Shown here: in pieces, positions 1 through 16,152 of the stretch
Position numbering within the stretch: the first letter of the stretch is position 1
How the letters are laid out: each line of letters starts with the position of its first letter
NCBI GenBank assembly: GCA_002793035.1
Contig: PFPL01000047.1
Location: 1-28,059, forward strand
Source of the DNA: Candidatus Magasanikbacteria bacterium CG_4_10_14_0_2_um_filter_33_14
GTDB taxonomy: Bacteria > Patescibacteriota > Patescibacteriia > Magasanikbacterales > UBA922
DNA length: 28,059 bases
Reading direction: 5' to 3'
The notes under the pieces: model-generated
Told to the model about the DNA's origin: nothing
The model's input: the letters and a program-made list of their open reading frames with translations, nothing else
The model's database searches: none
Program-made: the position numbers and the translations under genes

Positions 1-1368
1 CTGACAAGTTGTCAATCTCAAGAGATGCTTGAATTCCCAGGTGGTATCATGGGTGTAGCTTTGAATTTGGAAGAAGAAACTGTTGGTGCCATGATTCTTG
101 GTGAATATGAAAAAATCAAAGAAGGAGATACGGTCAAGAGAACAGGTAGAATTTTGTCAGTACCTGTTGGTGAAAAAGTAATTGGTCGTGTTGTAAATGC
201 TCTTGGACAAGCCATTGATGGAAAAGGCGAAATTGTAACAAAAGAATTTTATCCTATAGAAAAGACTGCTCCTGGTGTGATGAGTCGTCAACCTGTTGGT
301 GTTCCTGTTCAAACTGGTATCAAAGCTATTGATGCTATGATTCCAATCGGACGTGGACAACGTGAACTTATTATTGGTGATCGTCAGACTGGTAAGACTG
401 CTATTGCTATTGATGCTATCATCAACCAAAAAGGTCAAAACATGAAATGTATTTATGTAGCTATTGGACAAAAAGAATCAAAAGTAGCTCGTATTGTAGC
501 CAAACTTGAAGAAAATGGTGCTATGGAATACACAACTGTAGTAGTAGCTGGCGCATCTGATCCTGCTGCTATGTCTTTCATCGCTCCTTATGCTGGTGTT
601 ACTATGGCTGAATACTTCGCTGACAAAGGTGAAGATGTCTTAATCGTCTATGATGATCTTACCAAACAAGCTTGGGCTTATCGTGAAATTTCTTTGTTAC
701 TAAGACGCCCACCAGGACGTGAAGCTTATCCTGGAGACGTATTTTATCTTCATTCTCGTCTGCTAGAACGTGCTTGTAACTTGAACAAAGAACATGGTGG
801 TGGATCAATCACAGCTCTTCCTATTATCGAAACTCAAGCAAGTGACGTGACTGCTTATATCCCTACCAACGTTATTTCTATTACTGATGGTCAGATTTTC
901 TTGGAAACAGATTTGTTTTTCAAAGGTATTCGTCCTGCTGTAAACGTCGGTATCTCAGTTTCTCGTGTGGGTGGTGCAGCTCAAACAAAACCAATGAAAA
1001 AAGTTTCTGGTAAAATCAAGCTTGCTCTTGCTCAATATCGTGAACTTGAAGCTTTTGCTCAATTTGCTAGTGACTTGGACGTGGAAACTAAGAAACAATT
1101 GGATAGAGGTGCTAGAGTAGTAGAACTTATGAAACAACCTCAATATAGTCCTATGGATGTGGCTGATCAAGTTGCTTCTATTTACGCAGTTGATAATGGT
1201 TATTTCGATGATGTCGCTGTCGTAGATATTTTGAAAACAGAAGAAAAATTATTGGATTTTCTAAAAGGTAGTCATTCATCACTTTTAGAAAAAATTTCTA
1301 AAGGTGATTGGGAAGATAGTACTGTTGCAGATTTGAAGAGTGCTTGTGAAGAGTTCAAGAAACAATAA
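1..1368 (+). CDS. atpA: F1Fo ATP synthase alpha subunit (5'-truncated by window edge)
   Basis: The frame is open from base 1 ([15 protein letters not shown]...), so the true start lies upstream of the window. Walker A GDRQTGKT is present. Typical alpha-subunit stretches are [27 protein letters not shown] and [26 protein letters not shown]. The gene is followed by atpG, atpD and atpC. Confidence 0.97.
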
Positions 1369-1413
1369 ACAATTAACAATAAACAATTAACAATTAACAA
1401 CTATCATCATTCT

Positions 1414-1980
1414 ATGCCAGAAAAAACAGATCCAAAATTTATACCTGGAGTGGAGAAAATTCCGGGGGTTATTTCTGGGAGCGAAAGTGTAGTTGAACAA
1501 CCAAATAAAGAACAAAACGGTGCTGATATGGGGGATTCTCATTTGGATGTAAAAAAAACTACTGATAAAGATGAAATGACGGAGGCTGAAGTTAGAATTT
1601 TTTTGCAAGATTTTGGAGAAGCTTCTGAAATAGATGATTTGGAAAAATCTTTGAAAGAACATTTAGATAAAATAAAGGTTATTTGCACAAATATAATGAG
1701 TGATTTAGGTAAATTTTCAAGCCGTGTATTTAAAAGAAAAGCTTTAGACAGAAATTTAAAAAATATTAATAATTTAAATAGACGTGAACTTGTCTTTGTC
1801 AAAACTATTGAGGAGAGTAAGAGAACTGAAATGATCAAAAAGTATTATGAGATACAAGAGAGTATATGGAAATTTTTAGATAAAACCAGATCAAGTTCTT
1901 GGGAGTATAATAGTGATAAAGACAAATTAGAATCAATTAGAGTTACAATCAATTTTATTTTGTCAATAATAAACAAATAA
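1414..1980 (+). CDS. Hypothetical protein (188 aa) inserted between atpA and atpG; no recognisable family
   Basis: Long ORF on the operon strand that fills the atpA-atpG gap. The N-terminus is Lys/Glu/Asp-rich and low-complexity; the C-terminal half looks helical. There is no TM segment and no motif I recognise. It is visibly more A/T-rich than the flanking atp genes. Confidence 0.6.
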   Translation: MPEKTDPKFIPGVEKIPGVISGSESVVEQPNKEQNGADMGDSHLDVKKTTDKDEMTEAEVRIFLQDFGEASEIDDLEKSLKEHLDKIKVICTNIMSDLGKFSSRVFKRKALDRNLKNINNLNRRELVFVKTIEESKRTEMIKKYYEIQESIWKFLDKTRSSSWEYNSDKDKLESIRVTINFILSIINK

Positions 1981-2004
1981 ACCAATTAACTAATAAACTA
2001 ATAT

Positions 2005-2970
2005 ATGGCAGTGTCCGCTAAAGCAATCAAAACTAGAATAAAATCAGTTTCCAACACCAAGAAAATTACCAAGGCTATGGAAATGGTTTCTGCTGCAAAA
2101 ATGCGCAAAGCTGTGCAGGCTGCTTTGGATACTAGAGAGTATGCAACAACCGCTTGGGATTTGCTGATAAATTTGTCAAAAACTGAAAAAGAGGGTATGC
2201 CTCTCCTAGAAGTCAGACAAGTAAAAAGACTTTTGGTTGTACTTATTACTTCCAATCGTGGTCTTTGTGGTAGTTTCAATTCCAATATTATCAAAAAAAC
2301 AGCTGCTCAACTAAAAGATCCAAGAAATCTTAGTATGCAACGTGCTCGTAACGGTCATATCGAACCAAATGAGAATTTGGAAGTGGATGTAATTGGTATT
2401 GGACGCAAAGGTGCTGATTTTTGTAAAAAACATGGTTATAATCTTATTGCTTCTTTCAATACTATTTCTGATAAACCAGTTTTGGAAGATGTGATGGTCG
2501 CTTCTCAAATGATTATTGGAAATTATATTGAAAAGAAATATGATAAAGTTGTAGTATCTTATACCGATTATCGCTCAGCTGTTGCTCAAGAAGCAAAAAT
2601 TCGTCAAGTATTGCCAATTTCAGAATTTGATTTGGAAAAGACTATTACAGAATTGGGGCGTGATGAAGATTTGCAAGATAGAACTCTTAGTAAAGATAAA
2701 CAAGAACAATTGAATGAATATTTGTTTGAACCTGGTAAGAAAAAAGTATTGGAAACAATTTTGCCTAGACTTGTAGAAATGCAAATTTATCAATCACTTT
2801 TGGAAAGTTCTGCTAGTGAACACAGTGCTCGTATGCTTGCTATGAAAAATGCAGGGGACTCTGCCAATGATATGATAAAAGAATTGAATCTTACTTACAA
2901 CAAAACTAGACAAGCTGCTATTACTCAAGAAATTGCTGAAATCGCTGGTGGTGCTGCTGCGCTTAGTTAA
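2005..2970 (+). CDS. atpG: F1Fo ATP synthase gamma subunit
   Basis: N-terminus IKTRIKSVSNTKKITKAMEMVSAAKMRKA and C-terminus ARMLAMKNAGDSANDMIKELNLTYNKTRQAAITQEIAEIAGGAAAL are classic gamma-subunit termini. Position in the operon agrees. Confidence 0.93.
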   Translation: MAVSAKAIKTRIKSVSNTKKITKAMEMVSAAKMRKAVQAALDTREYATTAWDLLINLSKTEKEGMPLLEVRQVKRLLVVLITSNRGLCGSFNSNIIKKTAAQLKDPRNLSMQRARNGHIEPNENLEVDVIGIGRKGADFCKKHGYNLIASFNTISDKPVLEDVMVASQMIIGNYIEKKYDKVVVSYTDYRSAVAQEAKIRQVLPISEFDLEKTITELGRDEDLQDRTLSKDKQEQLNEYLFEPGKKKVLETILPRLVEMQIYQSLLESSASEHSARMLAMKNAGDSANDMIKELNLTYNKTRQAAITQEIAEIAGGAAALS

Positions 2971-2979
2971 GTTAATATT

Positions 2980-3540
2980 ATGGATATACTGGAAAGACAT
3001 GTTGATAATGAACCAAATAAAGTAAGAGATTTTAAAGATTTTAAATTATCTGAAGATTTGTTTGAGGATGCTGAAGGTAGAAATTTAAAATTTAAATATG
3101 CTTATGATAATAATCCTTCTGTAGAAATTGAATTGGAATTTAGAAAACAAATAAAAGAAGAAAAAGAAGATTATTTTATAAAAATAAAAAAAGATGGTGA
3201 AAATATAGTAGAATTGACCTTTGAATTTTATCAAGAAAATAATAGTTTATTAGTTACTGATAGTATAGATAAATCAAATAATTTGGATAATGAGGATAAG
3301 GATAGATTGAAAGAAATAGGTACTGAACTATATAAAAGGATGATTGAATTTTTTGAAAGTTTATCTGATGATAAAAAAGAAAAATTTGAACATCGTGTTA
3401 TACCTTATCCAAGTTCTGAAATGAGCTTATCTACATGGAATAAAATTTTTCTTGAAAATGTAGGTCTTAAATCAAAGGGTTACAAATTAAAATCTCCAAA
3501 GAAAAGGAATGATGTGTATTATTGGAGTAAAGTTTATTAG
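2980..3540 (+). CDS. Hypothetical protein (186 aa) inserted between atpG and atpD; no recognisable family
   Basis: ORF on the operon strand starting 10 nt after the atpG stop. It is very Lys/Glu/Asn/Asp-rich, has no TM segment and carries no recognisable motif. It is more A/T-rich than the atp genes. Confidence 0.55.
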   Translation: MDILERHVDNEPNKVRDFKDFKLSEDLFEDAEGRNLKFKYAYDNNPSVEIELEFRKQIKEEKEDYFIKIKKDGENIVELTFEFYQENNSLLVTDSIDKSNNLDNEDKDRLKEIGTELYKRMIEFFESLSDDKKEKFEHRVIPYPSSEMSLSTWNKIFLENVGLKSKGYKLKSPKKRNDVYYWSKVY

Positions 3541-3584
3541 AAAAAAATATTCAATTAAATTTTAAAAAATAAAAAGAATTTTAA

Positions 3585-4970
<1,386 letters not shown>

Positions 4971-5099
4971 GAAGGCCTGAAAGGCCAGAAAAGCCAAAAA
5001 GGCTTGAAAGGCTATTAAGGTTATAAGTTAGAAAATAAATAATTGAAAAGTACAAAGCTTTTTAGGCATTTCAAGCTTTTCAAGCATTTTAAGCCTTTA
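4971..5099. repeat. Two opposed arrays of a 9-bp unit in the atpD-atpC spacer
   Basis: Array A (4971-5023) reads gaaggcct/gaaaggcca/gaaaagcca/aaaaggctt/gaaaggcta/ttaaggtta. Array B (5055-5099) reads aagcttttt/aggcatttc/aagcttttc/aagcatttt/aagccttta. The B units are roughly the reverse complement of the A units (aagccttt pairs with aaaggctt). Confidence 0.8.
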
Positions 5100-5101
5100 A
5101 T

Positions 5102-5521
5102 ATGATGATCAAATTCAGCGTTATCACACCAGAAAAAAAAGTTTACGAAAACGAAGTTTTTCAAGTAAGTATTCCTACTACAACTGGTGAAATTACAGTA
5201 TTGCCAGGCCATATTCCTATGGTATCTGTTCTTCAAGCTGGAGAAATGAGAATAAAAGACAAAGATGGTGAACATCCTTATGCTGTCTCTGCTGGTTTCT
5301 TGGAAGTAAGAGCAAACAATGAACTTGTTATTTTGGCTGATAGAGCTGAAAGAGCTGACACTATTGATTTGGTTCGTGCTGAAGAATCTCGCAAGAGAGC
5401 AGAAGAAGAAATGAAAAAAGCCAAAGCTGGTCAAGATGTTGACTATGCTAGACTCCAAGCTTTGATTGACAAAGAGATGAACAGAATCAGAGTTGGTAAT
5501 AAATATAGAAAATTAAAGTAA
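5102..5521 (+). CDS. atpC: F1Fo ATP synthase epsilon subunit
   Basis: N-terminal beta-sandwich signature VITPEKKVYENEV...IPTTTGEITVLPGHIPMVSVLQAGEMRI, with a helical C-terminal domain. It is the last gene of the atp cluster. An alternative start is at 5105. Confidence 0.9.
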   Translation: MMIKFSVITPEKKVYENEVFQVSIPTTTGEITVLPGHIPMVSVLQAGEMRIKDKDGEHPYAVSAGFLEVRANNELVILADRAERADTIDLVRAEESRKRAEEEMKKAKAGQDVDYARLQALIDKEMNRIRVGNKYRKLK

Positions 5522-5566: not shown

Positions 5567-6634
5567 ATGAATGAAAATGGATTATCTGTCGATCCAAACG
5601 ACATAGTAGAATCTCCAGAAAGGAAAGAAATGAGTAGAGGAGATCTACATCGAGATATTGAAAAAAATTTAAAAGAAAATAAAGTAAAACCTGTAGAAGC
5701 CAGAGAATTAATGGCAAAAATTTCAGAGACTTGTGTTGATGGTAGACGTGAAGAAGGTGCTATAGGTACTCCTGGTGGTAATGCTGGTGAATTTGTTTTG
5801 ATGCTCGCTGCTCAATTTGGTGAAAGGTCAGCTAAAATTACACGTGACAATATTAGTCGGTATCTTGAATATTTTTTAGAAGTTAATGGTAGTTTTTATT
5901 TTCATACAGATAGAAAAGCCCTAGGTAATATATCAGAGGAAACTATTAAAGATCCAGAAGTGGAAGGATATAAAGAATTATTAAGAAAGTTAACTTCAAT
6001 TGAACATGTTGGTTGTGGTCATTTGGCAAAACTTTTACAATTTCCTAAAGAATATGGTGTAAATGAAACTTTTATAAAGAATGTTATTGAGGCTATTTAT
6101 TTTAGAATGTGGACCGTAAACAATGCTTTATCTAAAGCTACAAACGAAGCTGAAAAAGAAAAAATAATGAAAAGAAAAAGAATTGACTTTGAAATTTTAT
6201 CTGGAACTCATGAGGAAAAGGCTGTAGTTGTAGTAAAAAGAGTAAAAAATAATGTGGAAACAGGAGAGAAAAAAGAATTAGATACTATAAGCTTAGATTC
6301 CAAAGTTCCTATGATTTCCCCAAAAGGTAATGGCGTTTCTTTTTTTGTTTCTCATCCTAAGGCTAAAGGTTTTTTGAGAGCTAGTTTAGCTGCTGAAGCT
6401 GAAAGAATTTTTCCAGATGAGGGAGTTAATAGTGAAGATTTATTGAAGAAGATTAATGATTTGGGTAAAATACAAAGTGCTCAAACTTTGGCTCGTTTAG
6501 CTGTCACAAGAAGAGAGGGGCAACCAGATCGAGGTTATCCTATTTTTCTGGCAGTTTATGATGAAGAAGGTATTTTTTTGAGGTTAGAAGATGATGGTAG
6601 TAATGTTGCTACTTTGGCTGAGTTACAATCTTAA
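5567..6634 (+). CDS. Hypothetical soluble protein (355 aa) with CxDxR ... HxxCG motif pair
   Basis: Long ORF with ordinary composition and no TM segment. CVDGR lies at residues 56-60 and HVGCGH at residues 147-152. I cannot assign a family. Confidence 0.7.
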   Translation: MNENGLSVDPNDIVESPERKEMSRGDLHRDIEKNLKENKVKPVEARELMAKISETCVDGRREEGAIGTPGGNAGEFVLMLAAQFGERSAKITRDNISRYLEYFLEVNGSFYFHTDRKALGNISEETIKDPEVEGYKELLRKLTSIEHVGCGHLAKLLQFPKEYGVNETFIKNVIEAIYFRMWTVNNALSKATNEAEKEKIMKRKRIDFEILSGTHEEKAVVVVKRVKNNVETGEKKELDTISLDSKVPMISPKGNGVSFFVSHPKAKGFLRASLAAEAERIFPDEGVNSEDLLKKINDLGKIQSAQTLARLAVTRREGQPDRGYPIFLAVYDEEGIFLRLEDDGSNVATLAELQS

Positions 6635-6660
6635 AAAGTTGTCTAAGCAATATTAGAATA

Positions 6661-7397
6661 GGCTCTAGACTAGCAGAAAGTATGATATACTATCAATACT
6701 ATGCTAGATACAGCCAAAATAAGTGAATATAAAATCAAAAAAATTATTACCCATTTTTGTTTAGATATTACCGCTGACAGAACGGCATATTTGCTGGGTA
6801 TAAATCGCAATACGATTAACCATTGGTATAAGATATTTCGACTTGCAGTTTATGCCTGGCAAATGAAAGAATGTAAAAAAATATTTGGTGAAGCAGAAGT
6901 GGATGAAAGTTACTTTGGTGCAAAACGGAAACGTGGCTATCGCGGAAAGCTGAAACGTGGTAGAGGAACTCAGAAACAACCGGCGTTTGGTTTGTTCAAA
7001 CGTAATGGAAGAGTGTATACTGAAATCATTCCCAATTGTACCAAAGCTGTATTACAAGGTATAATTAAAGGAAAAGTTGATCCATCTATGGTTATTTATT
7101 CAGATAAATGGCGTGGCTACGATGGGCTTGTTGACGTGGGATATGACAAACACTTTCGTGTGAATCATGGTGACAATGAATTTTCAAAGGGCAATGGTGT
7201 TCACATCAATGGTATTGAGAACTTCTGGAGCTTTACCAAACGACGTCTTACTAAATTCAATGGGGTGAAGAAAAATTTTGAACTTCATCTCAAAGAATCT
7301 GAATGGCGTTATGATAAAGATCCAAAAGTTCTTGAAAAAGAACTGTGGATTATTCTTAAAGGGCACTCTAAATTGTAAGTTTTGCTAGTCTAGAGCC
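6661..7397 (+). mobile_element. Intact IS1595-family insertion sequence
   Basis: Perfect terminal inverted repeats: ggctctagactagca (6661-6675) and tgctagtctagagcc (7383-7397). They are extendable to 17 bp if flanking bases are counted. The direct repeat tagaata sits immediately outside both ends (6654-6660 and 7398-7404). The element carries a single transposase ORF. Confidence 0.85.
6701..7378 (+). CDS. IS1595-family (ISXO2-like DDE) transposase
   Basis: N-terminal HTH-like segment (RTAYLLGINRNTINHWY). Catalytic-region pattern VDESYFG ... VIYSDKWRGYDGL ... HINGIENFWSFTKRRL is typical of the ISXO2-like transposase domain. Confidence 0.85.
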   Translation: MLDTAKISEYKIKKIITHFCLDITADRTAYLLGINRNTINHWYKIFRLAVYAWQMKECKKIFGEAEVDESYFGAKRKRGYRGKLKRGRGTQKQPAFGLFKRNGRVYTEIIPNCTKAVLQGIIKGKVDPSMVIYSDKWRGYDGLVDVGYDKHFRVNHGDNEFSKGNGVHINGIENFWSFTKRRLTKFNGVKKNFELHLKESEWRYDKDPKVLEKELWIILKGHSKL

Positions 7398-7412
7398 TAG
7401 AATAATATAAGG

Positions 7413-7444
7413 AATCATAGTCTTTATCAAAACTATGGTTTTTA
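7413..7444 (+). terminator. Rho-independent terminator, probably belonging to CDS 5567..6634 and displaced by the IS insertion
   Basis: Stem aatcatagt / actatggtt (one G-U pair) with a 10-nt loop, running into a short T-run (ttttt at 7439-7443). It lies just outside the right end of the IS1595 element. Confidence 0.5.
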
Positions 7445-7499
7445 TAAGATACAAAAAAAGTCAAAAAACTGTGCATATGTATTTTTTTAATACTTAACA

Positions 7500-8092
7500 A
7501 AATCCTCCAGCGAAGCTGGACGGTTACCATCCCATCAAAGATGGACTAGTTTACAACAAAGAGCCAGATAGTGTAGAATAATAACATATGACTAAGCCAA
7601 ACTACTACCGAAAAAGCAATCATACGACATACGATTGTCGCTACCATATTGTATTTATACCAAAATATAGATATCATGTACTCTCAGACGAAAAGGTAGC
7701 AACATTCGTGAAAACAGTATTTGAACAAGTATGTAATAATAATGAGGTAGTTATTATTGAAGGGAAGATACGTTCTAATCATGTCCACTTGTATCTATCC
7801 GTACCTCCTAAACATTCAATAGCAGACATAGTTAAATATCTCAAGGAAAAGAGTGCTTCACGTTCATTTAGACAATTTCCAGAACTCCTAAAACGCTACT
7901 GTGGCAGACACTTTTGGGCACGAGGATACTTTGTAAGTACTGTTGGCATAACAGATGATATAATAAAGGCTTACATACATAACCAAGAAGAGAAAGAACG
8001 GCAAGAGGAAGAACAACTACGTCAATTAAAACTTTGGAAATAGCACGACAAAGTCGGTGTCCCGTGAAACCGCCGACTATGTCGGCGGTAAT
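7500..8092 (+). mobile_element. IS200-type element (IS200/IS605 family, tnpA only); boundaries approximate
   Basis: A Y1 transposase ORF is flanked by locally GC-rich hairpins. Upstream hairpins are tccagc-gaa-gctgga (7506-7520) and ccatc-aaa-gatgg (7532-7544). The downstream hairpin is accgccgac-tat-gtcggcggt (8069-8089). There are no terminal inverted repeats, as expected for this family. Confidence 0.65.
7588..8043 (+). CDS. tnpA: IS200/IS605-family Y1 (HUH) transposase TnpA
   Basis: YDCRYHIVFIPKYRY, the HUH motif SNHVHLYLSVPP, and the catalytic-Tyr region HFWARGYFVSTVG. The size (151 aa) is typical. Confidence 0.92.
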   Translation: MTKPNYYRKSNHTTYDCRYHIVFIPKYRYHVLSDEKVATFVKTVFEQVCNNNEVVIIEGKIRSNHVHLYLSVPPKHSIADIVKYLKEKSASRSFRQFPELLKRYCGRHFWARGYFVSTVGITDDIIKAYIHNQEEKERQEEEQLRQLKLWK

Positions 8093-8231
8093 TCATTGAC
8101 ATTTAGTATGTTTAGTGAGAAAATATATCCTGTCATAAATCTATTAGTCTTAGATATGCCACTATTTTAGTAAAAAATGACTTTTCCTCGTTTTTTTGTA
8201 GATTATAACAAAACATTATTTTAGTACTTTT

Positions 8232-8774
8232 ATGTTAAAATTTTTTGTAAAAATATTTAAAACACCTGAAAATATAATTTCTTTTCCAAAAAACGATCTT
8301 AGCCAGATGGATTTTTTTGAAATTGGAGAAAAAATACAAGATAAAGTAAAAAAAATGTTTAGTGGTTCTTTGGCTATCAGACAAATTGACGCTGGATCAG
8401 ACAATGCCTGTGAACAAGAACTTGTGGCGTTGTCTAATAGTTTTTATGATATAGAACGTTTTGGTATTCATTTTGTGGCTTCACCAAGACATGCTGACAT
8501 GCTTTTGGTGACTGGTCCTGTGACACGAAATATGGTCAAGGCACTTAAAGATGCTTATGATGGTACTCCTGATCCTAAAATTGTGGTAGCAATAGGGGAT
8601 GATGCTATTGGTGGGGGAATATTTAAAGATTCTTATGCTGTATTAAATGGAGTAGATTCAGTAATACCTGTAGATTATCAAATTCCTGGAGATCCTCCTA
8701 CACCTACTTTTATTCTTCAATCTTTACTTAAGATTCTTGAAACAATAGAAAATAAACCTTCACAGAAAAAATAA
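8232..8774 (+). CDS. NuoB/HycG/HyfI-like hydrogenase small-subunit homologue with degenerate Fe-S ligands
   Basis: Family motifs ERFGIHFVASPRHADMLLVTGPVTR, PDPKIVVAIGDDAIGGGIF and VDYQIPGDPPTP are present. The positions normally holding the four cluster cysteines read D57, C60, D124 and D154. Confidence 0.85.
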   Translation: MLKFFVKIFKTPENIISFPKNDLSQMDFFEIGEKIQDKVKKMFSGSLAIRQIDAGSDNACEQELVALSNSFYDIERFGIHFVASPRHADMLLVTGPVTRNMVKALKDAYDGTPDPKIVVAIGDDAIGGGIFKDSYAVLNGVDSVIPVDYQIPGDPPTPTFILQSLLKILETIENKPSQKK

Positions 8775-8775
8775 T

Positions 8776-10827
8776 ATGTTAGAAATTATTACATCATCAA
8801 TTAGCTTTTTTACGTTACTTTCTTTTTTTGGAGTTGGTGCAGTAGGTTCTTTGTTAGTACATAAAAATAACAAAAATGCCAATGCTTGGAGTAGTTTTTT
8901 TGCTATTGTAGGTTCATTCTGGGGTGTGTTTTTTTCCATTATTATGATTTTAAGGAAGAAGAGTTTACTGTTTGATTTGAAAACATCAATTTTTTCACTT
9001 TTTAATATATCTTTTCATATTGATTTATTATCTAGTTTTTTTATTTTTGTTATTTCTTTGTTAGCATTATTTTGTTCTATTTATGGTATAGGATATATTA
9101 GACATTATTACAAAAAATATGATATTGGTGTTTTAGGATTTTTTTATAATTTATTTATTGGTAGTTTGTTTTTAGTTGTTACTTCTTCCAATGCTTTATT
9201 TTTTTTAATTTTTTGGGAAATCATGTCGATTGCTTCATACTTTTTAGTTGTCTATGATAGTAATGATGAAAGCAATGTAAAAGCAGGTTTATTGTATTTG
9301 GTAATGACTTACATAGGAACATCTTTTATTATTTTGTCTTTCTTACTTTTGTATAAGTATATTGGATCTTTTGATTTTTTGGTGATAAAAGATAGTATAG
9401 CTCTTGTGCCTGCAGTTATAAAAAATATTGTTTTTATCTCTGCGTTTATAGGTTTTGGTTTGAAGGCTGGTATTATTCCTTTACATATTTGGTTGCCAGC
9501 AGCTCACCCTGCTGCCCCTTCTCATGTTTCAGCTTTGATGTCAGGGGTGATGATTAAGACTGGTATTTACATGATGATAAGATTGTTTTTGGATATTCTA
9601 CAACCAATACCACTTTGGTGGGGTTTGGTAGTTTTGGTGGTTGGGTCTATTTCAGCTTTACTTGGAGTTTTGTATGCACTTACTGAACATGATATAAAAA
9701 GATTGTTGGCTTACCATAGTATAGAAAATATTGGTATTATTTTGCTTGGTTTGGGGAGTGCATTGACTTTTTATTCCCTCAACTTATCAGCTTTAGCTTT
9801 GCTTGGTTTGGTAGCTGCCTTATTTCATACAATAAATCATGCTATTTTCAAGGCTCTACTTTTTTTGAGTGCAGGATCTGTTATCAATGAAACACATACT
9901 CGTAATATGGAGGAATATGGTGGACTTATAAAGTATATGCCACAAACAGCCTTGTTTTTTCTTGTTGGATCCATTGCAATTTCTGCCTTGCCACCGTTTA
10001 ATGGTTTTTTTAGTGAGTGGTTGACTTACCAAGCTTTGTTTCAAGGAATAGCGCAAATGCATTTTTGGACACAGTGGATTTTTATTTTAGCTGCCGGTTC
10101 ATTAGCCTTTACTGGTGGCTTAGCTCTAGCTTGTTTTGTCAAAGCTTTTGGTGCTACATTTTTGGCACGTCCTCGAAGTAAGGAGGTAACTCATGCTAAA
10201 GAGTCTGCTTTATCTATGCGTTTAGGTATGGGTTCTTTGGCAGTATTAGCACTTTTGTTTGGTGTTTTTTCTGGTTATATAATTAGTTTACTTAAAACAA
10301 TTGGACAAGGTCTAAGTGTTTTTAAAGATTCAGCTTCGGCTGTAGATGTTTCATCTGCTCAAATTATAAACGTCTCTAATGGATTTTCTGTAATCTCTGG
10401 TTTTGGAATTTTTACTTTGTTGGTTGTTATTACTTTTTTGGTAATTTTTATCTTTAAAAAAATAATCAATAATAAACAAAAAGAATGTATCAGTAATACT
10501 TGGGATTGTGGTACAGATTTGAGTCCACGTGCGGAAATAACTGCAACAGGATTTTCAAGATCAATTGTTCAAATATTTAGTGGTTTGTTAAAACCAACTA
10601 TTCAACATCATATTGAATATTATGATGATGAAAATAGGTATTTACCAAAATCAAGGACAGTTACTCTAAATATTGGTAACATGTATCATACTTATTTTTA
10701 TCAGCCTTTACATTTAGTAATTAACAAATTATCAACTAGAGCTAGAGATATACAAAATGGAAATATTGATCTTTATATTTCTTATATTTTTATTGCACTT
10801 ATGTTAGCTCTATTAGTAATATTATAA
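8776..10827 (+). CDS. HyfB/NuoL/MrpA-like antiporter-type membrane subunit
   Basis: Polytopic protein of 683 aa with the signature WLPAAHPAAPSHVSALMSGVMIKTGIYMMIR plus HSIENIGIILLG and HAIFKALLFLSAG. Confidence 0.88.
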   Translation: MLEIITSSISFFTLLSFFGVGAVGSLLVHKNNKNANAWSSFFAIVGSFWGVFFSIIMILRKKSLLFDLKTSIFSLFNISFHIDLLSSFFIFVISLLALFCSIYGIGYIRHYYKKYDIGVLGFFYNLFIGSLFLVVTSSNALFFLIFWEIMSIASYFLVVYDSNDESNVKAGLLYLVMTYIGTSFIILSFLLLYKYIGSFDFLVIKDSIALVPAVIKNIVFISAFIGFGLKAGIIPLHIWLPAAHPAAPSHVSALMSGVMIKTGIYMMIRLFLDILQPIPLWWGLVVLVVGSISALLGVLYALTEHDIKRLLAYHSIENIGIILLGLGSALTFYSLNLSALALLGLVAALFHTINHAIFKALLFLSAGSVINETHTRNMEEYGGLIKYMPQTALFFLVGSIAISALPPFNGFFSEWLTYQALFQGIAQMHFWTQWIFILAAGSLAFTGGLALACFVKAFGATFLARPRSKEVTHAKESALSMRLGMGSLAVLALLFGVFSGYIISLLKTIGQGLSVFKDSASAVDVSSAQIINVSNGFSVISGFGIFTLLVVITFLVIFIFKKIINNKQKECISNTWDCGTDLSPRAEITATGFSRSIVQIFSGLLKPTIQHHIEYYDDENRYLPKSRTVTLNIGNMYHTYFYQPLHLVINKLSTRARDIQNGNIDLYISYIFIALMLALLVIL

Positions 10828-10831
10828 TTTT

Positions 10832-11758
10832 ATGTTAGTTTTTATTTGGATAATACAATTAATTTTTATACCATTTTTTTCACCATTGTGTATTGGTATC
10901 ATTAGAAAGATAAAAGCTAAATTGCAAAATCGTCAAGGTGCAAATATTTTTCAACCCTATAGGGATCTTTGGAAACTTTTACACAAAGATGAAGTAATAA
11001 GTAGTGATGCTTCTTGGATTTTTAAATTTACTCCTTATATTATTTTTGCTGTGACTTTGGTCGTTGGTCTTAGCGTCCCTCTTTTTTTACCACGTATTGT
11101 AGGTTTTGTTACTAGTGATATATTGTTTATTGTTTATGCTTTAGCTATTAGTACTTTCTTTATGGCTTTAGCTGGTATGGATACAGGAAGTGCTTTTGGT
11201 GGCTTTGGCTCAAGTCGTGAAATGACTATTGCAGCTTTAGCTGAAGGTGGTTTTATTTTTTCACTTTTGACTATGGCTTTGATAGCTGGTTCTAGTAATT
11301 TGTTTACCATAGCTGGTCTTACTAGATCAATTGATAGTCAATCATTTTTGCCAGCCATATTGGCTTTTGGAGGCTTTTTTATTATTTTATTGGCTGAGAC
11401 TTCCAGATTTCCTTTTGATAACCCTGCTACTCATTTGGAATTGACTATGGTTCATGAAGCTATGATTTTGGAATGTTCAGGTAAACGTTTAGCACTTATG
11501 GAATGGGCAGCTTCAAATAAGTTACTTATTTTTATGTCTCTTGGTGCTAATTTATTTTTTCCATTTGGACTTGATTTGAATGTTGGTTTGGGTACAATAG
11601 TCTTGGGTATGTTTTACTTTTTAATAAAAATATTTTTGTTTTGTGTGGTTGTAGCTCTTTTAGAATCAAGTATCGCTAAATTTAGATTTTTTCGCTTACC
11701 AGATTTATTGCTAGTTTCTTTTATTTTCAATGTGGTGGCCATTGGACTTATAAAGTGA
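10832..11758 (+). CDS. HyfC/HycD/NuoH-like membrane subunit
   Basis: Polytopic protein of 308 aa. It contains the ETSRFPFDNPATHLELTMVHEAMILECSG motif (the NuoH-type E..R.PFD..E.E.EL pattern). Size and position match HycD/HyfC. Confidence 0.82.
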   Translation: MLVFIWIIQLIFIPFFSPLCIGIIRKIKAKLQNRQGANIFQPYRDLWKLLHKDEVISSDASWIFKFTPYIIFAVTLVVGLSVPLFLPRIVGFVTSDILFIVYALAISTFFMALAGMDTGSAFGGFGSSREMTIAALAEGGFIFSLLTMALIAGSSNLFTIAGLTRSIDSQSFLPAILAFGGFFIILLAETSRFPFDNPATHLELTMVHEAMILECSGKRLALMEWAASNKLLIFMSLGANLFFPFGLDLNVGLGTIVLGMFYFLIKIFLFCVVVALLESSIAKFRFFRLPDLLLVSFIFNVVAIGLIK

Positions 11759-11796
11759 ACTTAAAATATTTTTTTGATTTTTTTATTTGATAATTT

Positions 11797-12444
11797 ATGA
11801 ATTTATTAACTTTACAGTTTTTATCACAGATACTCCTATTATCTATTGTTTTTTTACTTATCATGAAGAAAAATTTTTCGGCTGTTTCTGCTTATAGTTT
11901 GCAATCATTGGTAGTGGTTATCATATTGTTGAACTCATTTTTTGAAACCAAAGACATGTGGATGTTGCTAGTTATCTTGGTGATGTTGATTGTCAAAGTT
12001 ATTTTGGCTCCTGTATTTTTTATTCGTTTGATTAGAAAGTATGCTTTGGCTTTCTCGGTTAGTACTTATCTTAGCACACCTATAACATTAATCATTATTA
12101 CAATCTTAGTATTCATAGCTCACTCTCAAAAATTAATTCCTTTGACTAGGATCGTTCCTGATCACCAGGTCTTGTTATCACTGGCCTTGTCATCACTGTT
12201 TCTTTCTCTATTTTTGATAGTAAATCGTAAAGGTGCTTTGTCACAAATTATAGGTATTTTATCTTTTGAAAATAGTATTGTCGTGTTTGCTGTTTTTGCT
12301 AATTTGGAACAGTCAGCTGCTCTTCAATTAGGAATTGTTTTTGATATTTTCATTTGGATTATGATTGCCTCCGTTTTTATATCAATGCTTTATAAACATT
12401 TTGGAACATTGAATGTATCTTCTATGAAAAATCTAAAAGATTAA
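11797..12444 (+). CDS. HyfE-like small membrane subunit
   Basis: The 215-aa length matches HyfE. The C-terminal region LSQIIGILSFENSIVVFAV...MLYKHFGTLNVSSMKNLK parallels the E. coli HyfE C-terminus (ENG...THGTLDVNNLTALK), recalled from memory. Confidence 0.8.
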   Translation: MNLLTLQFLSQILLLSIVFLLIMKKNFSAVSAYSLQSLVVVIILLNSFFETKDMWMLLVILVMLIVKVILAPVFFIRLIRKYALAFSVSTYLSTPITLIIITILVFIAHSQKLIPLTRIVPDHQVLLSLALSSLFLSLFLIVNRKGALSQIIGILSFENSIVVFAVFANLEQSAALQLGIVFDIFIWIMIASVFISMLYKHFGTLNVSSMKNLKD

Positions 12445-12448
12445 AAAT

Positions 12449-13894
12449 ATGGAAATTCTTTTTATCATTACAACTTTGTTTATAGTCGCTGTTATAAATT
12501 TGATTACCAAAAGAAAAAGTATTATTGAAGTTGCTTCAATAATTGCTTCCTTAATTTATTTAGTATTATCTGTTGCTATAGCCCTACAGGTGTCTTCATC
12601 TGGCCTCTATGCCCCATGGTCTTGGCAATTTTTTGCAATTGATGATCTAGGAGCTATTATTGTACTGGTTCTTGGGTTGGTTGGTTTTACGACTACTATT
12701 TATTCTGTACAATACTTACGTCAGGAGATGTACAAAAATATCATTGGTTTCAAACGAATGAAACAATATTTTGTTTTATTAAACATATTTTTTGCAGCTA
12801 TGTTTTTGGCGATTACTTCTAGTAATCCCATTTTTGCTTGGATTTCTATTGAGGCTACAACTTTGTCTACAGCCTTTTTGATAAGTTTTTATAATAAACC
12901 ATCAGCTGTTGAAGGTGCTTGGAAATATTTAATCATTAACTCTGTTGGGTTACTTTTGGGATTTTTTGGAACTTTATTATTTTTTACTTCTATTGATTTG
13001 TCTAGTGCCGGTTTAATTAATTGGCAGTTACTGACTGCTAATGCTACACACCTCGACCCATTACTTGCAAAAATTGCCTTTGTTTTTGTACTTATTGGTT
13101 ATGGAACTAAAGTTGGTTTGGTACCAATGCATACCTGGAAACCTGATGCTTATAGCAAAGCACCTGCACCGATTGGTGCCTTATTGTCTAGTGCCTTATT
13201 ACCAATTGCCTTTGTAATAATACTTAGATACAAAGCCATTACAGATATTGTTGTTGGTCCTTTGTTTAGTCAGAGATTGTTTATTACTTTTGGTTTATTA
13301 TCTATTGTTGTGGCTGCTTTGATTATGTTTAACGCTAAAAATTACAAAAGACTTTTGGCTTATTCTAGTATTGAAAATGCCGGAGTGATGGTTCTTGGTT
13401 TTGCTTTTGGTGGCTTAGGTGTCTTTGCCGCTGTGCTTCATTTAATTTATCATTCTTGTGTTAAAGTTGTACTTTTTTTATCTTCGGGAAACTTGTTGCT
13501 TAAATACAATTCAGCCAAAATTTTTAATATCAAAGGTGCTTTAAAAATTATTCCAGTAACTAGTGTACTTTTTATTATAGGATTTTTGATTGTAACAGGT
13601 ATCCCGCCATTTGGTATGTTTATGACCAAACTTTATGTGTTGTCATCTGGTATGAAAGAGTATCCTATTGTTAGTTTAATTGCTTTGTTTTTTTTAGCAT
13701 TGGTTTTTGTAAGTTTTCTAAAATACATTACAACTATGTTTTTTGGAGACAAACCGGATAACATTGAGAAGGGCGAAAATAATATTTGGCTTTTGATACC
13801 ACAAATTTTTTTGGTAGTTGTTATTATTATTCTGAGTTTTTATTTACCACCTTTTTTACATACTTTAATCAACAATGTTGTTTTGCAATATTAA
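12449..13894 (+). CDS. HyfD/HyfF/NuoM-N-like antiporter-type membrane subunit
   Basis: Polytopic protein of 481 aa with VPMHTWKPDAYSKAPAPIGALLSSALLP and AYSSIENAGVMVLGF, typical of the NuoL/M/N-Mrp antiporter family. Confidence 0.85.
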   Translation: MEILFIITTLFIVAVINLITKRKSIIEVASIIASLIYLVLSVAIALQVSSSGLYAPWSWQFFAIDDLGAIIVLVLGLVGFTTTIYSVQYLRQEMYKNIIGFKRMKQYFVLLNIFFAAMFLAITSSNPIFAWISIEATTLSTAFLISFYNKPSAVEGAWKYLIINSVGLLLGFFGTLLFFTSIDLSSAGLINWQLLTANATHLDPLLAKIAFVFVLIGYGTKVGLVPMHTWKPDAYSKAPAPIGALLSSALLPIAFVIILRYKAITDIVVGPLFSQRLFITFGLLSIVVAALIMFNAKNYKRLLAYSSIENAGVMVLGFAFGGLGVFAAVLHLIYHSCVKVVLFLSSGNLLLKYNSAKIFNIKGALKIIPVTSVLFIIGFLIVTGIPPFGMFMTKLYVLSSGMKEYPIVSLIALFFLALVFVSFLKYITTMFFGDKPDNIEKGENNIWLLIPQIFLVVVIIILSFYLPPFLHTLINNVVLQY

Positions 13895-15470
13895 TATGAT
13901 AAAAGAAAAAATACAATTATATCTTCCAGAAAACGTAAATGTTGATTATCACGATAATTTGGCTATTTTTGAAGTGTCTTCTTCACAAATAGGGGATGTT
14001 GTTAATGATTTGCATAATCAAAAAAAACTTCCACTTAAGTTAGTTACTGTAACAGATGAAAGAAAAGAAAATGGGTCATTTAAAATTTGGTATTTATTTG
14101 GAGTGCCTGGTGATAATTTTTTTATGTGTCCTTTTGTTGTGTTGAAAAATACGATTGAATTTCCTTCATTGGCTAACATTGTACCTGAAATATTAAATTA
14201 TGAGAGAAAAATACAAACTTTTTTTGGTCTCAAAGCACTAGGCATACCAGATAATAGAGCTCTCATTTTACATGAAAATTATCCAAGTGATGTTTTTCCT
14301 CTTCGAAAAGATTTTGAGTGGAAAACTAAATTAAAAAAGTCTACTGGAAAATATGATTTTCAAGAAGTAAAAGGTGAAGGGATTTATGAGATTCCAGTTG
14401 GACCAATACATGCTGGTATTATTGAGCCTGGACATTTTCGTTTTAGTATGGTTGGAGAAAGTATTGTACAACTTGAACCACGCTTGGGTTATGTACACAA
14501 AGGTAGTGAAAAATTATTTGAAGTTCTTCCTCTTGAAGATAAAGTGCGCTTGTCAGAAAAAATTTCTGGTGATAGTTCTTTTAGTCATTCTTTAGCTTTT
14601 TGTCAGACAATAGAAAAACTAGCTGAAATTAATGTGACAAAACGTGCTTTATACTTGAGAACTATTTTTGCTGAATTGGAAAGACTGGCTAATCATTTTG
14701 GTGATATTGGAGCTATTATGATGGATACTGGTTTTAGTTTTGGTGGGGCTAATGGTTCACGTTTACGTGAGATGATTATGCAAATAAATGAAAAATTAAC
14801 AGGAAGCAGATTTTTGCGTCGAGTCAATACTATTGGCGGTGTAAAGAAAGACTTGAATAATGACAATAAAGATTATTTAAATAAGATATTAATAGATATT
14901 AGCAAAGATTTTGAAGAAGTTGTAGAAATTGCTGAAAATAGTGCTTCTGTATTGAATCGGCTCAAAGGTACAGGTATAATCTCTTTTGAGATAGCTAATA
15001 ATCTTGGTCTTGTAGGAGTAGCAGGTAGAGCAGTTGGTATAAAACGTGATACACGTATCGATCATCCTTATGCAGCTTATTTAGAAGTTTCTATGGGGCA
15101 AATACCTATCGAAGAAGAAGGGGACGTAAATGCTAGATTTCAAATTCGTCTTAAAGAAATTCGTAAATCATTAAATATAATACAAGAGTCTTTGCAAAAA
15201 ATGCCTGATGGTGAAATCGCTATTTCAAACAATGTCAATCTCATTATGAAAAAGAGTTCCTATGATGTTAGCATGGTTGAAGGTTGGCGTGGGGAAATAG
15301 TCTATTTTGTGGCTACAGATTCACAAGGAAACATTAGCAGAGTGTTCCCAAGAGATCCTTCATTTATCAACTGGTCAGCACTTGGAGAAGCTGGTTTGAA
15401 TAATATTGTACCTGATTTTCCTCTGATTAATAAGAGTTTTAATTTGTCTTATACAGGAAATGACCTATAA
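13875..15470 (+). CDS. HycE/HyfG-like fused NuoC-NuoD large-subunit homologue lacking all [NiFe] cysteine ligands
   Basis: The N-terminal part is NuoC-like. The NuoD/large-subunit core shows VGPIHAGIIEPGHFRF, EPRLGYVHKGSEKL and ELERLANHF. The N-terminal CxxC position reads S231-G-D-S234 and the C-terminal DPCxxC position reads N-L-S525-Y-T-G528. An alternative start at 13896 (MIKEK) would remove the overlap with the upstream gene. Confidence 0.88.
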   Translation: MLFCNINMIKEKIQLYLPENVNVDYHDNLAIFEVSSSQIGDVVNDLHNQKKLPLKLVTVTDERKENGSFKIWYLFGVPGDNFFMCPFVVLKNTIEFPSLANIVPEILNYERKIQTFFGLKALGIPDNRALILHENYPSDVFPLRKDFEWKTKLKKSTGKYDFQEVKGEGIYEIPVGPIHAGIIEPGHFRFSMVGESIVQLEPRLGYVHKGSEKLFEVLPLEDKVRLSEKISGDSSFSHSLAFCQTIEKLAEINVTKRALYLRTIFAELERLANHFGDIGAIMMDTGFSFGGANGSRLREMIMQINEKLTGSRFLRRVNTIGGVKKDLNNDNKDYLNKILIDISKDFEEVVEIAENSASVLNRLKGTGIISFEIANNLGLVGVAGRAVGIKRDTRIDHPYAAYLEVSMGQIPIEEEGDVNARFQIRLKEIRKSLNIIQESLQKMPDGEIAISNNVNLIMKKSSYDVSMVEGWRGEIVYFVATDSQGNISRVFPRDPSFINWSALGEAGLNNIVPDFPLINKSFNLSYTGNDL

Positions 15471-15654: not shown

Positions 15655-16125
15655 ATGACAGAACAAGAAAAATATCTTGTCAGAAACAACATGCAAAATG
15701 TTGTGACATCGGTAAATATTAATGCTACTTTTAGTGAAGCATTACAAAAAATGGTCGACGGACGTACCAATGGTTTGGTTGTCGTTGATGATGAAAATTA
15801 TGTAAAAGGTATTCTATCTAGTATAGACTTGATTAGTTATTTGGTACCTGACTATTTAGAGGAGGATAAACATTTAGCTGCTTTTGAAGTTGCTGAAGAA
15901 TTTACAACCAGAATTAAAGAAATTGAAAATGAACCAATTACCAAATTTATGACAAAAGATGTTCATACTATTAAAGAAGATCGTACTTTGATGGAAGCTG
16001 CTACTATTCTTTCAGAGTTCAAAATTCGTCAGATTCCTGTAGTAAATGAGGAAGAAAAATTGGTTGGCTATATCAATCGTACTGACATTAAAAAAGCTAT
16101 TGCCCATGTTTTGGGAATTCATTAA
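15655..16125 (+). CDS. CBS-domain pair protein
   Basis: 156 aa with two CBS-like repeats (VVTSVN...GLVVVDDENYVKGILSSIDL and VHTIKED...IRQIPVVNEEEKLVGYINRTDI). Confidence 0.8.
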   Translation: MTEQEKYLVRNNMQNVVTSVNINATFSEALQKMVDGRTNGLVVVDDENYVKGILSSIDLISYLVPDYLEEDKHLAAFEVAEEFTTRIKEIENEPITKFMTKDVHTIKEDRTLMEAATILSEFKIRQIPVVNEEEKLVGYINRTDIKKAIAHVLGIH

Positions 16126-16152
16126 TAAAAATAATAAAGATTTATAAATTAT

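Follow-up and report, generated by a model that had tools for sequence, protein, structure and literature searches.

In complex I and in the Group 4 hydrogenases, coupling is thought to start with redox chemistry at the junction of NuoB-, NuoD- and NuoH-type subunits. One branch related to these enzymes is called Ehr, which stands for 'Ech-hydrogenase-related' in work on Geobacter and for 'energy-converting hydrogenase-related' in the usage cited from Marreiros 2013, which defined Ehr; its function is called unknown in two other reports (PMC10284858, PMC10432482). Here we describe an Ehr operon of six genes in a stretch of 28,059 nucleotides (the window hereafter: positions 1 to 28,059 of contig PFPL01000047.1) from Candidatus Magasanikbacteria bacterium CG_4_10_14_0_2_um_filter_33_14, a member of the Candidate Phyla Radiation (CPR, or Patescibacteria). 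In its small subunit, EhrS, aspartate stands at three of the four positions that bind the proximal [4Fe-4S] cluster in related proteins.

The Ehr/Hyq family and its CPR clade are already known. Jaffe et al. (2020, BMC Biol; PMC7304191) described a monophyletic CPR clade within the Ehr branch of Group 4 large subunits, whose members lack the metal-binding cysteines and were judged unlikely to interact with H2. This clade corresponds to the complex studied here, the nearest homologues of the window being from Magasanikbacteria and other Patescibacteria. The main text of that report deals with the large subunit only, and is silent on small-subunit ligands, on an aspartate signature and on the absence of a ferredoxin. 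In Proteobacteria, the Hyq complex of Azorhizobium caulinodans (hyqBCEFGI; PMC3357923) and the EhrS/EhrL system of Geobacter sulfurreducens (PMC7894505) comprise the same six subunit types, and Sprecher et al. (2012; PMC3357923) reported that rhizobial HyqI conserves Cys55, Cys58, Cys112 and Cys152, while HyqG is devoid of both CxxC motifs. Proteobacterial Ehr/Hyq and the CPR complex have in common a large subunit without CxxC, the motifs SGD[ST] and KSxNxSYxGxDL, and the lack of a HycF/NuoI subunit. They differ in that the proteobacterial complexes keep all four small-subunit cysteines and follow the gene order B-H-E-F-L-S (Rhizobium, Mesorhizobium, Ensifer, Methylobacter, Desulfobulbaceae, Desulfuromonas), whereas the order is S-B-H-E-F-L in the CPR, as seen in at least 20 loci. 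Proteobacterial hosts of Ehr/Hyq respire with quinones, and CPR bacteria generally have none.

By its gene content and motifs, the complex encoded in the window is an Ehr (Hyq-like) complex of a Candidatus Magasanikbacteria-type CPR bacterium, since the NiFe cysteines are gone, no HycF/NuoI gene is present and all six subunit types are found. The best sequence and structure matches of EhrS and EhrL are to the Hyf/Hyc systems (PDB 7z0s) and to the membrane-bound hydrogenase (MBH) of Pyrococcus furiosus (6cfw), which also have homologous membrane subunits. E. coli Hyf/Hyc, however, possesses an [NiFe] site (HyfG RVCGICGFAH), a C-C-C-C small subunit (HyfI) and the ferredoxins HyfH/HycF and HyfA/HycB, none of which has a counterpart in the CPR complex. 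The Q-module of complex I (NuoB/NuoD/NuoH) is matched by an EhrS fold that superposes on NuoB/NDUFS7, by a NuoC-NuoD fusion and by a NuoH homologue; unlike complex I, for which cluster N2, NuoI, NuoA/J/K and, for NADH use, NuoE/F/G are expected, the CPR operon is limited to six genes, without N2 ligands and without NuoI, E, F or G. The Mrp Na+/H+ antiporter, being multi-subunit, redox-free and equipped with MrpA/MrpD-type subunits, is a functional analogue only: it has MrpB, C, E, F and G and no NuoB/NuoD/NuoH module, and the CPR operon, by Pfam, shows the reverse.

The first gene of the operon encodes a member of Pfam PF01058 (Oxidored_q6, NADH ubiquinone oxidoreductase 20 kDa subunit), matched over residues 58-167 with 87.8 bits (cut-off 27), and of the NCBIfam 'NuoB' subfamily NF005012, with 127 bits (cut-off 116). 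Among solved structures it comes closest to P. furiosus MbhJ (6cfw_J, E 4.7e-32), E. coli HycG (7z0s_G, E 6.9e-31) and mitochondrial NDUFS7. Proteins of this type currently carry labels such as 'NADH-quinone oxidoreductase subunit B', 'formate hydrogenlyase' or 'Ni,Fe-hydrogenase III small subunit'. In alignments with MbhJ and HycG, respectively, the EhrS segment AGS-D57-NA-C60-EQE falls under GS-C-NG-C-DIE and GG-C-NG-C-EIE, AIGD-D124-AIGGG under AIGA-C-PTGGS and YGA-C-GNSGG, and IPG-D154-PPTP under VPG-C-PPRP and IPG-C-PPTP. D57, C60, D124 and D154 occupy the columns of the four cysteines that bind the proximal (N2-type) [4Fe-4S] cluster, numbered here as ligands 1 to 4, and C60 is the sole cysteine of the protein. 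D124 rather than its neighbour D123 is assigned to the third column because proteobacterial relatives read GD-C-ARDGG there. A misalignment of the aspartates was ruled out by three independent PDB alignments together with the proteobacterial Ehr sequences. The initial annotation had claimed that three of the four cluster cysteines are each replaced by aspartate and that the pocket could not hold a standard cubane; the first point is confirmed at the ligand columns by the MbhJ, HycG and NDUFS7 alignments, and the second agrees with the single thiolate left, which makes a standard four-cysteine cubane impossible. We regard it as very likely that no standard [4Fe-4S] cluster occupies the EhrS site.

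The fold itself is conserved. An AlphaFold2 model of EhrS, built from 94 sequences without any cofactor, reached a predicted local distance difference test score (pLDDT) of 84.3, with 87-96 in the core blocks, and a predicted template-modelling score (pTM) of 0.80. NDUFS7, NuoB and MbhJ were the top Foldseek matches of this model, which superposes on MbhJ (6cfw_J) with a root-mean-square deviation of 2.0 Å over 135 columns (template-modelling score 0.87, target-normalised) and on Aquifex NuoB (7q5y_F) with 1.7 Å. In the model, the cluster pocket would lie next to the starts of the helices at 59-68, 123-127 and 158-174.

Conservation was assessed on EhrS and its best 120 homologues, all from Patescibacteria/CPR and 67-98% identical, with Magasanikbacteria nearest, followed by Staskawicz-, Moran-, Nomura- and Paceibacteria and others. 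The ligand columns read DCDD in 79 and DCDN in 42 of these 121 sequences, and D57, C60, D123 and D124 are invariant in 121/121, among 43 invariant columns out of 180. Across 23 CPR loci the ligand codons show synonymous variation only (GAT/GAC, TGT/TGC). Aspartate is not a mutational neighbour of cysteine, because going from TGY to GAY takes two nucleotide changes; neutral decay of cysteine codons should rather have led to Ser, Gly, Arg, Tyr or Phe. Judged from these alignments, a D-C-D-D clade exists and is under purifying selection, and the D-C-D-[D/N] pattern is far beyond chance. The suspicion in the initial annotation that the replacement was not random, and that such a clade might exist, is thus borne out by the uniform DCD[D/N] pattern, the invariance of D57, C60 and D124, the synonymous codon variation and the two-step codon path. 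The wider setting had escaped that annotation: a large subunit without [NiFe] ligands, no ferredoxin-type subunit, membership in the named Ehr family and the return of the signature in other phyla.

Within the CPR clade, ligand 4 has toggled between Asp and Asn many times, and some CPR lineages have Thr as ligand 1. The CPR homologues were examined for compensation of charge between D/N154 and D/N127 and showed none, so that a fixed net charge of the pocket is unsupported. A conserved basic partner in EhrL was also considered, at the column of Nqo4 Arg84, which neighbours N2; this column holds Lys or Arg in the CPR, Asn in Niastella and Ala in a Methanoregula metagenome-assembled genome (MAG), and given this variability it is not a general salt-bridge partner.

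The large subunit has lost its metal ligands as well. EhrL reads K-I-S231-G-D233-S234 (14565-14576) where HycE has R-V-C-G-I-C (KISGDSSFSH against RVCGICGFAH in the wider alignment), and K-S-F-N-L-S525-Y-T-G528-N-D-L (15432-15467) in place of D-P-C-x-x-C (SFNLSYTG against SLDPCYSC in HycE). The four [NiFe] cysteine columns are therefore S/S/S/G, as in all CPR loci; RVCGICGFAH of E. coli HyfG served as positive control for the motif. EhrL has one conserved cysteine, C243, and the peripheral arm formed by EhrS and EhrL has two conserved cysteines in all. No gene for a HycF/NuoI-type 2x[4Fe-4S] ferredoxin was matched by Pfam in the operon or the window, and no open reading frame (ORF) with a C..C..C...C ferredoxin pattern was present in or beside the operon among 80 related loci.

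Other residues of EhrL are kept instead. In the loci of CPR bacteria, rhizobia, Methylobacter, Desulfobulbaceae, Niastella and Methanoregula alike, D233 never varies, and N523, S525, Y526, G528 and D530 vary hardly or not at all. A larger polar set (H179, E184, H187, R189, D233, E267, E269, R270, H274, K520, N523, S525, Y526, D530) is maintained with only isolated substitutions at a few columns, in cluster-bearing and cluster-free Ehr alike. The motifs S-G-D-S/T and K-S-x-N-x-S-Y-x-G-x-D-L at the former [NiFe] site are kept across phyla, with or without the small-subunit cluster, and because this conservation is independent of the cluster, the sequences suggest that the site is now a conserved polar or metal site. 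As for quinone binding, the column of Tyr87 in Thermus thermophilus Nqo4 corresponds to EhrL Gly232 in an ungapped HMMER alignment, so that this tyrosine is not conserved; the loop bearing His38 of Nqo4 is two residues longer in EhrL and has H179 and H187 on either side.

The six genes are contiguous on the same strand (8232-15470), separated by 2-39 nucleotides or overlapping, and all ORFs are intact. In EhrB, residues E148, K230, K261, H351, H355, K359 and E414 are invariant in every Ehr group sampled, and so are R129, E130, E189, R192, D196, H201, E203, H208 and E209 in EhrH. EhrH E214 and E224 are kept except in Niastella (D and L, respectively), E224 being also D in three proteobacterial sequences. 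EhrF has E135, K221 and H335 without exception; K339 gives way only once to Arg and once to Asn, and either Lys or Glu stands at position 394. The Glu of transmembrane helix 5 (TM5), the Lys of TM7 and the TM12 position are represented, with the central lysine, by E148, K230, K261 and E414 in EhrB, and by E135, K221 and K/E394 in EhrF. At the central TM8 lysine column, which is Lys in MbhH and MbsH, EhrF has Pro at residue 252, and every HyfF-like subunit of Ehr sampled has Asn or Pro; EhrB, unlike EhrF, retains this lysine as K261. NCBIfam matches of the operon proteins to Mrp subunits A and D stay below cut-offs. The position of ehrE in the operon is kept in all CPR loci.

We then ask how far the signature extends. 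A scan for related loci, with one genome per species, returned 80 loci. All large subunits sampled lack the NiFe cysteines and all carry R/K-x-S-G-D-S/T and K-S-x-N-x-S-Y-x-G-x-D-L. The small subunits fall into distinct patterns: proteobacterial Ehr/Hyq proteins (at least 50 sampled) are all C-C-C-C, members of the CPR main clade are DCDD, DCDN or TCDD, a second CPR clade reads T-E-G-D, with the carboxylate shifted to ligand 2 and Gly at ligand 3, and the Methanoregula MAG reads D-T-D-N. A wider survey of the nearest EhrS relatives used 150 representatives of clusters at 50% identity. C-C-C-C was found in 102 of the 150, and about 25 full-length representatives lack the cluster, with patterns such as SEGD, NEGD, DADN, DAAD, ECED, DVDD, DIDD, DDDS and DCDN; across relatives, ligand 1 is D/T/S/N, ligand 2 Cys/Val/Ile/Ala/Thr/Glu and ligand 4 D/N/S.

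Two families outside the CPR illustrate this recurrence. In a Bacteroidota/Chitinophagaceae family (representative P0233) the pattern is DCDN in 120/120 members, and the Niastella vici gene of this family belongs to an Ehr operon in which the large subunit has I-A-G-D-S and K-S-F-D-L-S-Y-C-G-H-D-L. In an actinobacterial-type family (P0199, with Solirubrobacteraceae labels) it is DVDD in 90 and DIDD in 30 of 120 members; here the operon order is H-E-F-L-S-B and the large-subunit site has degenerated differently (S-G-T-S, ...L-S-P-A-G-C-D-R). The small subunits of both the Bacteroidota locus (L082, 10001-10753, Niastella vici) and the actinobacterial-type locus (L083, 10001-10804) bear an N-terminal ferredoxin-like domain with a single CP...CxxCxxC motif, which is absent from CPR EhrS. 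As the NuoB-like domain of these fused proteins has no cluster ligands of its own (DCDN, DVDD), their lone cluster would be without a relay neighbour. CPR-type ehr operons (61-69% identical, S-B-H-E-F-L, DCDD/TCDD) were also seen on contigs labelled Fibrobacteria, Endomicrobiales, Rikenella microfusus and Gammaproteobacteria (L008, L015, L016 and L020), reflecting either mis-binning or lateral transfer.

To place these losses, a neighbour-joining (NJ) tree was built from concatenated L, B, H and F subunits (1,926 columns) and rooted on E. coli Hyf. The proteobacterial C-C-C-C group was monophyletic in 200/200 bootstraps, and the CPR main clade was recovered together with Niastella in 250/300, while all clusterless lineages formed a single group in only 2/300. 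Deep nodes are weak (46-53% bootstrap), with long branches and 24-36% identity, and we therefore limit the claim to probably two or more losses of the cluster, or else a single loss followed by a regain in Proteobacteria. NJ trees of the small subunit alone were discarded for counting losses, being poorly resolved, and in one case the alignment had split PGCPP and PGDPP into different columns. On the sequences sampled, each loss seems to have ended as Asp at ligands 1 and 3 and Asp, Asn or Ser at ligand 4.

How should this architecture be understood? Because it has no cluster ligands, no NiFe ligands and no ferredoxin subunit, the CPR complex would be unable to pass electrons, and without an electron route, redox-independent ion translocation would be its most plausible activity. 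The interpretation that we favour with moderate confidence, from the sequences and the structural model, is that the cluster is gone, that polar and acidic side chains fill its pocket, and that the complex, probably an ion translocator, operates with no transfer of electrons; the narrower claim that the CPR complex translocates ions without redox chemistry has, in our estimate, roughly even chances. The pocket would lie where the beta-sheet has its C-terminal edge, a place in which backbone NH groups and the N-termini of helices normally hold an anionic cubane in electropositive surroundings. With the cluster lost, its bulk, negative charge and hydrogen-bond acceptors would be supplied by side chains that are small and either polar or acidic (Asp at ligands 1 and 3, Asp or Asn at ligand 4), and the EhrS/EhrL/EhrH junction would thereby be preserved. 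The complex might then carry out secondary H+/cation exchange, or couple a non-redox event at the conserved polar site of EhrL, and might support ion homeostasis alongside the neighbouring F-type ATPase. Such a filler role fits the D/T/S/N variation at ligand 1, the uncompensated toggling at ligand 4 and the displaced carboxylate of the T/S/N-E-G-D clades. CPR bacteria are devoid of respiratory chains, and a role as ion translocator suits such a host, the more so since ATPase genes adjoin ehr here and in four to five other CPR loci.

A more specific possibility, which we consider rather unlikely, is that D57, D124 and D154, with C60, bind a cation of the hard or borderline kind (Na+, K+, Ca2+, Mg2+, Mn2+, or mononuclear Fe or Zn through C60) or make up a proton-loading carboxylate cluster, and so contribute to coupling where EhrS, EhrL and EhrH meet. 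The idea goes back to the initial annotation, which had raised a hard cation or a buried charge network. In its favour, the former cluster pocket brings together three carboxylates and a thiol, D124 and C60 never vary in either CPR or Bacteroidota, three or more large families have the signature fixed, most of the coupling residues checked in EhrH and EhrL are invariant, and Asn, Thr or Ser variants could, by general coordination chemistry, still ligate cations through oxygen. True metal sites, however, usually have invariant ligands, and ligand 4 switches many times between Asp and Asn without compensation, which fits a polar filler or hydrogen-bond network at least as well; ligand 1 may be Thr, Ser or Asn, ligand 2 varies from Cys to Val, Ile, Ala, Thr or Glu, and some clusterless relatives retain one carboxylate or none at the four columns (NEGN, TCGN). 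Bolder still, and in our opinion improbable, is a scheme in which the Asp-x-Asp-Asp/Asn pocket would be a purpose-built fixed negative charge, or a cation or proton site, that replaces the electrostatic role of reduced N2 at a NuoB/NuoD/NuoH-type junction. CPR Ehr would then be a fully redox-free machine of the complex I type, in which the binding of ions or protons, or else a non-redox reaction at the Asp/His/Tyr site of EhrL, gates or drives ion translocation, and the actinobacterial-type family, possibly also the Bacteroidota, would have reached this state independently.

Two further explanations fare less well. If the pocket housed an unconventional redox centre, either an Asp/Cys-ligated Fe-S cluster or a mononuclear iron, the complex would still be an oxidoreductase. 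The invariance of C60 is in line with this, but one thiolate is left, Asn or Thr replaces Asp in many members, the operon provides no electron donor subunit and the large subunit no acceptor site; moreover, a cubane held by three carboxylates is, to our knowledge, without precedent, and we hold such a centre to be very unlikely. Decay of a relic hydrogenase operon through neutral substitutions might have been suspected, CPR genomes being reduced and two transposase genes lying immediately upstream. This idea is effectively refuted: the six ORFs are intact and tightly packed, EhrS is 67-98% identical across CPR classes and its invariant columns include the substituted ones, most functional residues checked in all subunits are invariant, and both the purely synonymous variation of ligand codons and the two-step path from Cys to Asp reject a pseudogene.

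Several observations nevertheless weigh against our favoured reading of a cluster-free ion translocator with a filled pocket. The AlphaFold2 model carries no information on metal occupancy, and a pure filler would not account for a C60 that never varies in the CPR and Bacteroidota clades. Single aspartate ligands to [4Fe-4S] clusters exist elsewhere, in P. furiosus ferredoxin and in dark-operative protochlorophyllide oxidoreductase (DPOR), which renders an unusual centre conceivable. A redox link may persist in the Bacteroidota and actinobacterial-type families, given the one-cluster ferredoxin-like domain at the N-terminus of their small subunits. The adjacency of atp genes holds in only about 5/13 CPR loci with enough flanking sequence, and about eight lack it. 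Lastly, rhizobial Hyq, whose large subunit is without CxxC and hence without NiFe cysteines, has been genetically linked to hydrogenase activity (PMC3357923); this phenotype lends some weight to an unconventional centre.

Table 1. Position and identification of the ehr genes, the ligand codons of EhrS and neighbouring features in the window
Feature	Position	Strand	Description
ehrS	8232..8774	+	NuoB/HycG/MbhJ-type small subunit, 180 amino acids (aa); Pfam, PDB alignments, AlphaFold2, Foldseek
D57 codon	8400-8402	+	GAC; in G-S-D-N-A-C-E, replacing G-S-C-N-G-C-E (8400..8411)
C60 codon	8409-8411	+	TGT; same G-S-D-N-A-C-E segment
D123 and D124 codons	8598..8603	+	D124 GAT at 8601-8603; G-D-D-A against G-D-C-A in proteobacterial Ehr
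D154 codon	8691-8693	+	GAT; P-G-D-P-P against P-G-C-P-P; Asp or Asn in homologues
ehrB	8776..10827	+	HyfB/NuoL-like antiporter-like subunit, 683 aa; Pfam PF00361, NCBIfam 'hydrogenase 4 subunit B' 656.6 bits
ehrH	10832..11758	+	HycD/HyfC/NuoH-like subunit, 308 aa; Pfam PF00146
ehrE	11797..12444	+	HyfE-like membrane subunit, 215 aa; NCBIfam NF008556 'hydrogenase 4 membrane subunit', E 2.4e-16, below curated cut-off
ehrF	12449..13894	+	HyfF/NuoN-like antiporter-like subunit, 481 aa; Pfam PF00361, NCBIfam 'hydrogenase 4 subunit F'
ehrL	13875..15470	+	Fused NuoC-NuoD/HycE-like large subunit, 531 aa; HycE 7z0s_E alignment, E 2.6e-67
Possible operon promoter	8096..8124	+	TTGACA-17-GAAAAT with TG; weak, one site against 1.5 expected by chance
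atpA, atpG, atpD, atpC	25..5521	+	F-type ATP synthase genes upstream of the ehr operon; not part of the complex
ORF of 355 aa	5567-6634		No family match; between atpC and ehrS
IS1595-family DDE transposase	6701-7378		Between atpC and ehrS
IS200-type Y1 transposase	7588-8043		Between atpC and ehrS
Two highly charged ORFs, 188 and 186 aa	1414-1980, 2980-3540		No family match; inside the atp operon
Tandem-CBS-domain protein and CitMHS/ArsB-family anion transporter	15655-17427		Downstream of the ehr operon

The surroundings of the operon are summarized in Table 1. A promoter scan upstream of the operon remained at chance level (1 site against 1.5 expected), as did a terminator scan around it. The atp genes adjoin the ehr operon in five CPR loci, where they lie either upstream on the same strand (L001, L003, L006) or downstream on the opposite strand (L005, L017). 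In the close relatives L001 and L003 atpC leads almost directly to ehrS, and for this reason the block at 5567-8043 looks like a recent insertion. The atp operon of the window has the order atpA-orf-atpG-orf-atpD-atpC; no homologue of its two charged ORFs was found in any fetched locus, and the spacing of the atp genes in L001 and L003, whose proteins are 84-97% identical, leaves no room for them. Downstream of ehr, the pair formed by the CBS-domain protein and the CitMHS/ArsB-family transporter is kept only in the closest relative, L001.

In the searchable literature, which did not cover Marreiros et al. 2013, we found no description of the small-subunit cluster loss or of the D-x-D-D/N signature, nor of a predicted cofactor-free peripheral arm or the occurrence of the signature in Bacteroidota and actinobacterial-type families. 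For annotation, D-x-D-D/N provides a simple sequence marker that separates cluster-free from cluster-bearing Ehr. The ehr operon, widespread in the CPR, is under strong purifying selection; it encodes the NuoB/NuoD/NuoH-type junction together with the membrane arm, and no redox cofactor can be recognised in it. Should the complex be active, it would constitute a natural experiment on the 'Q-module plus antiporter' architecture operating without electrons, and would show which features of the N2 pocket, be it charge, bulk or hydrogen bonding, count in assembly or in coupling. Through it, CPR bacteria would also have a means of handling ion gradients next to the F-type ATPase.

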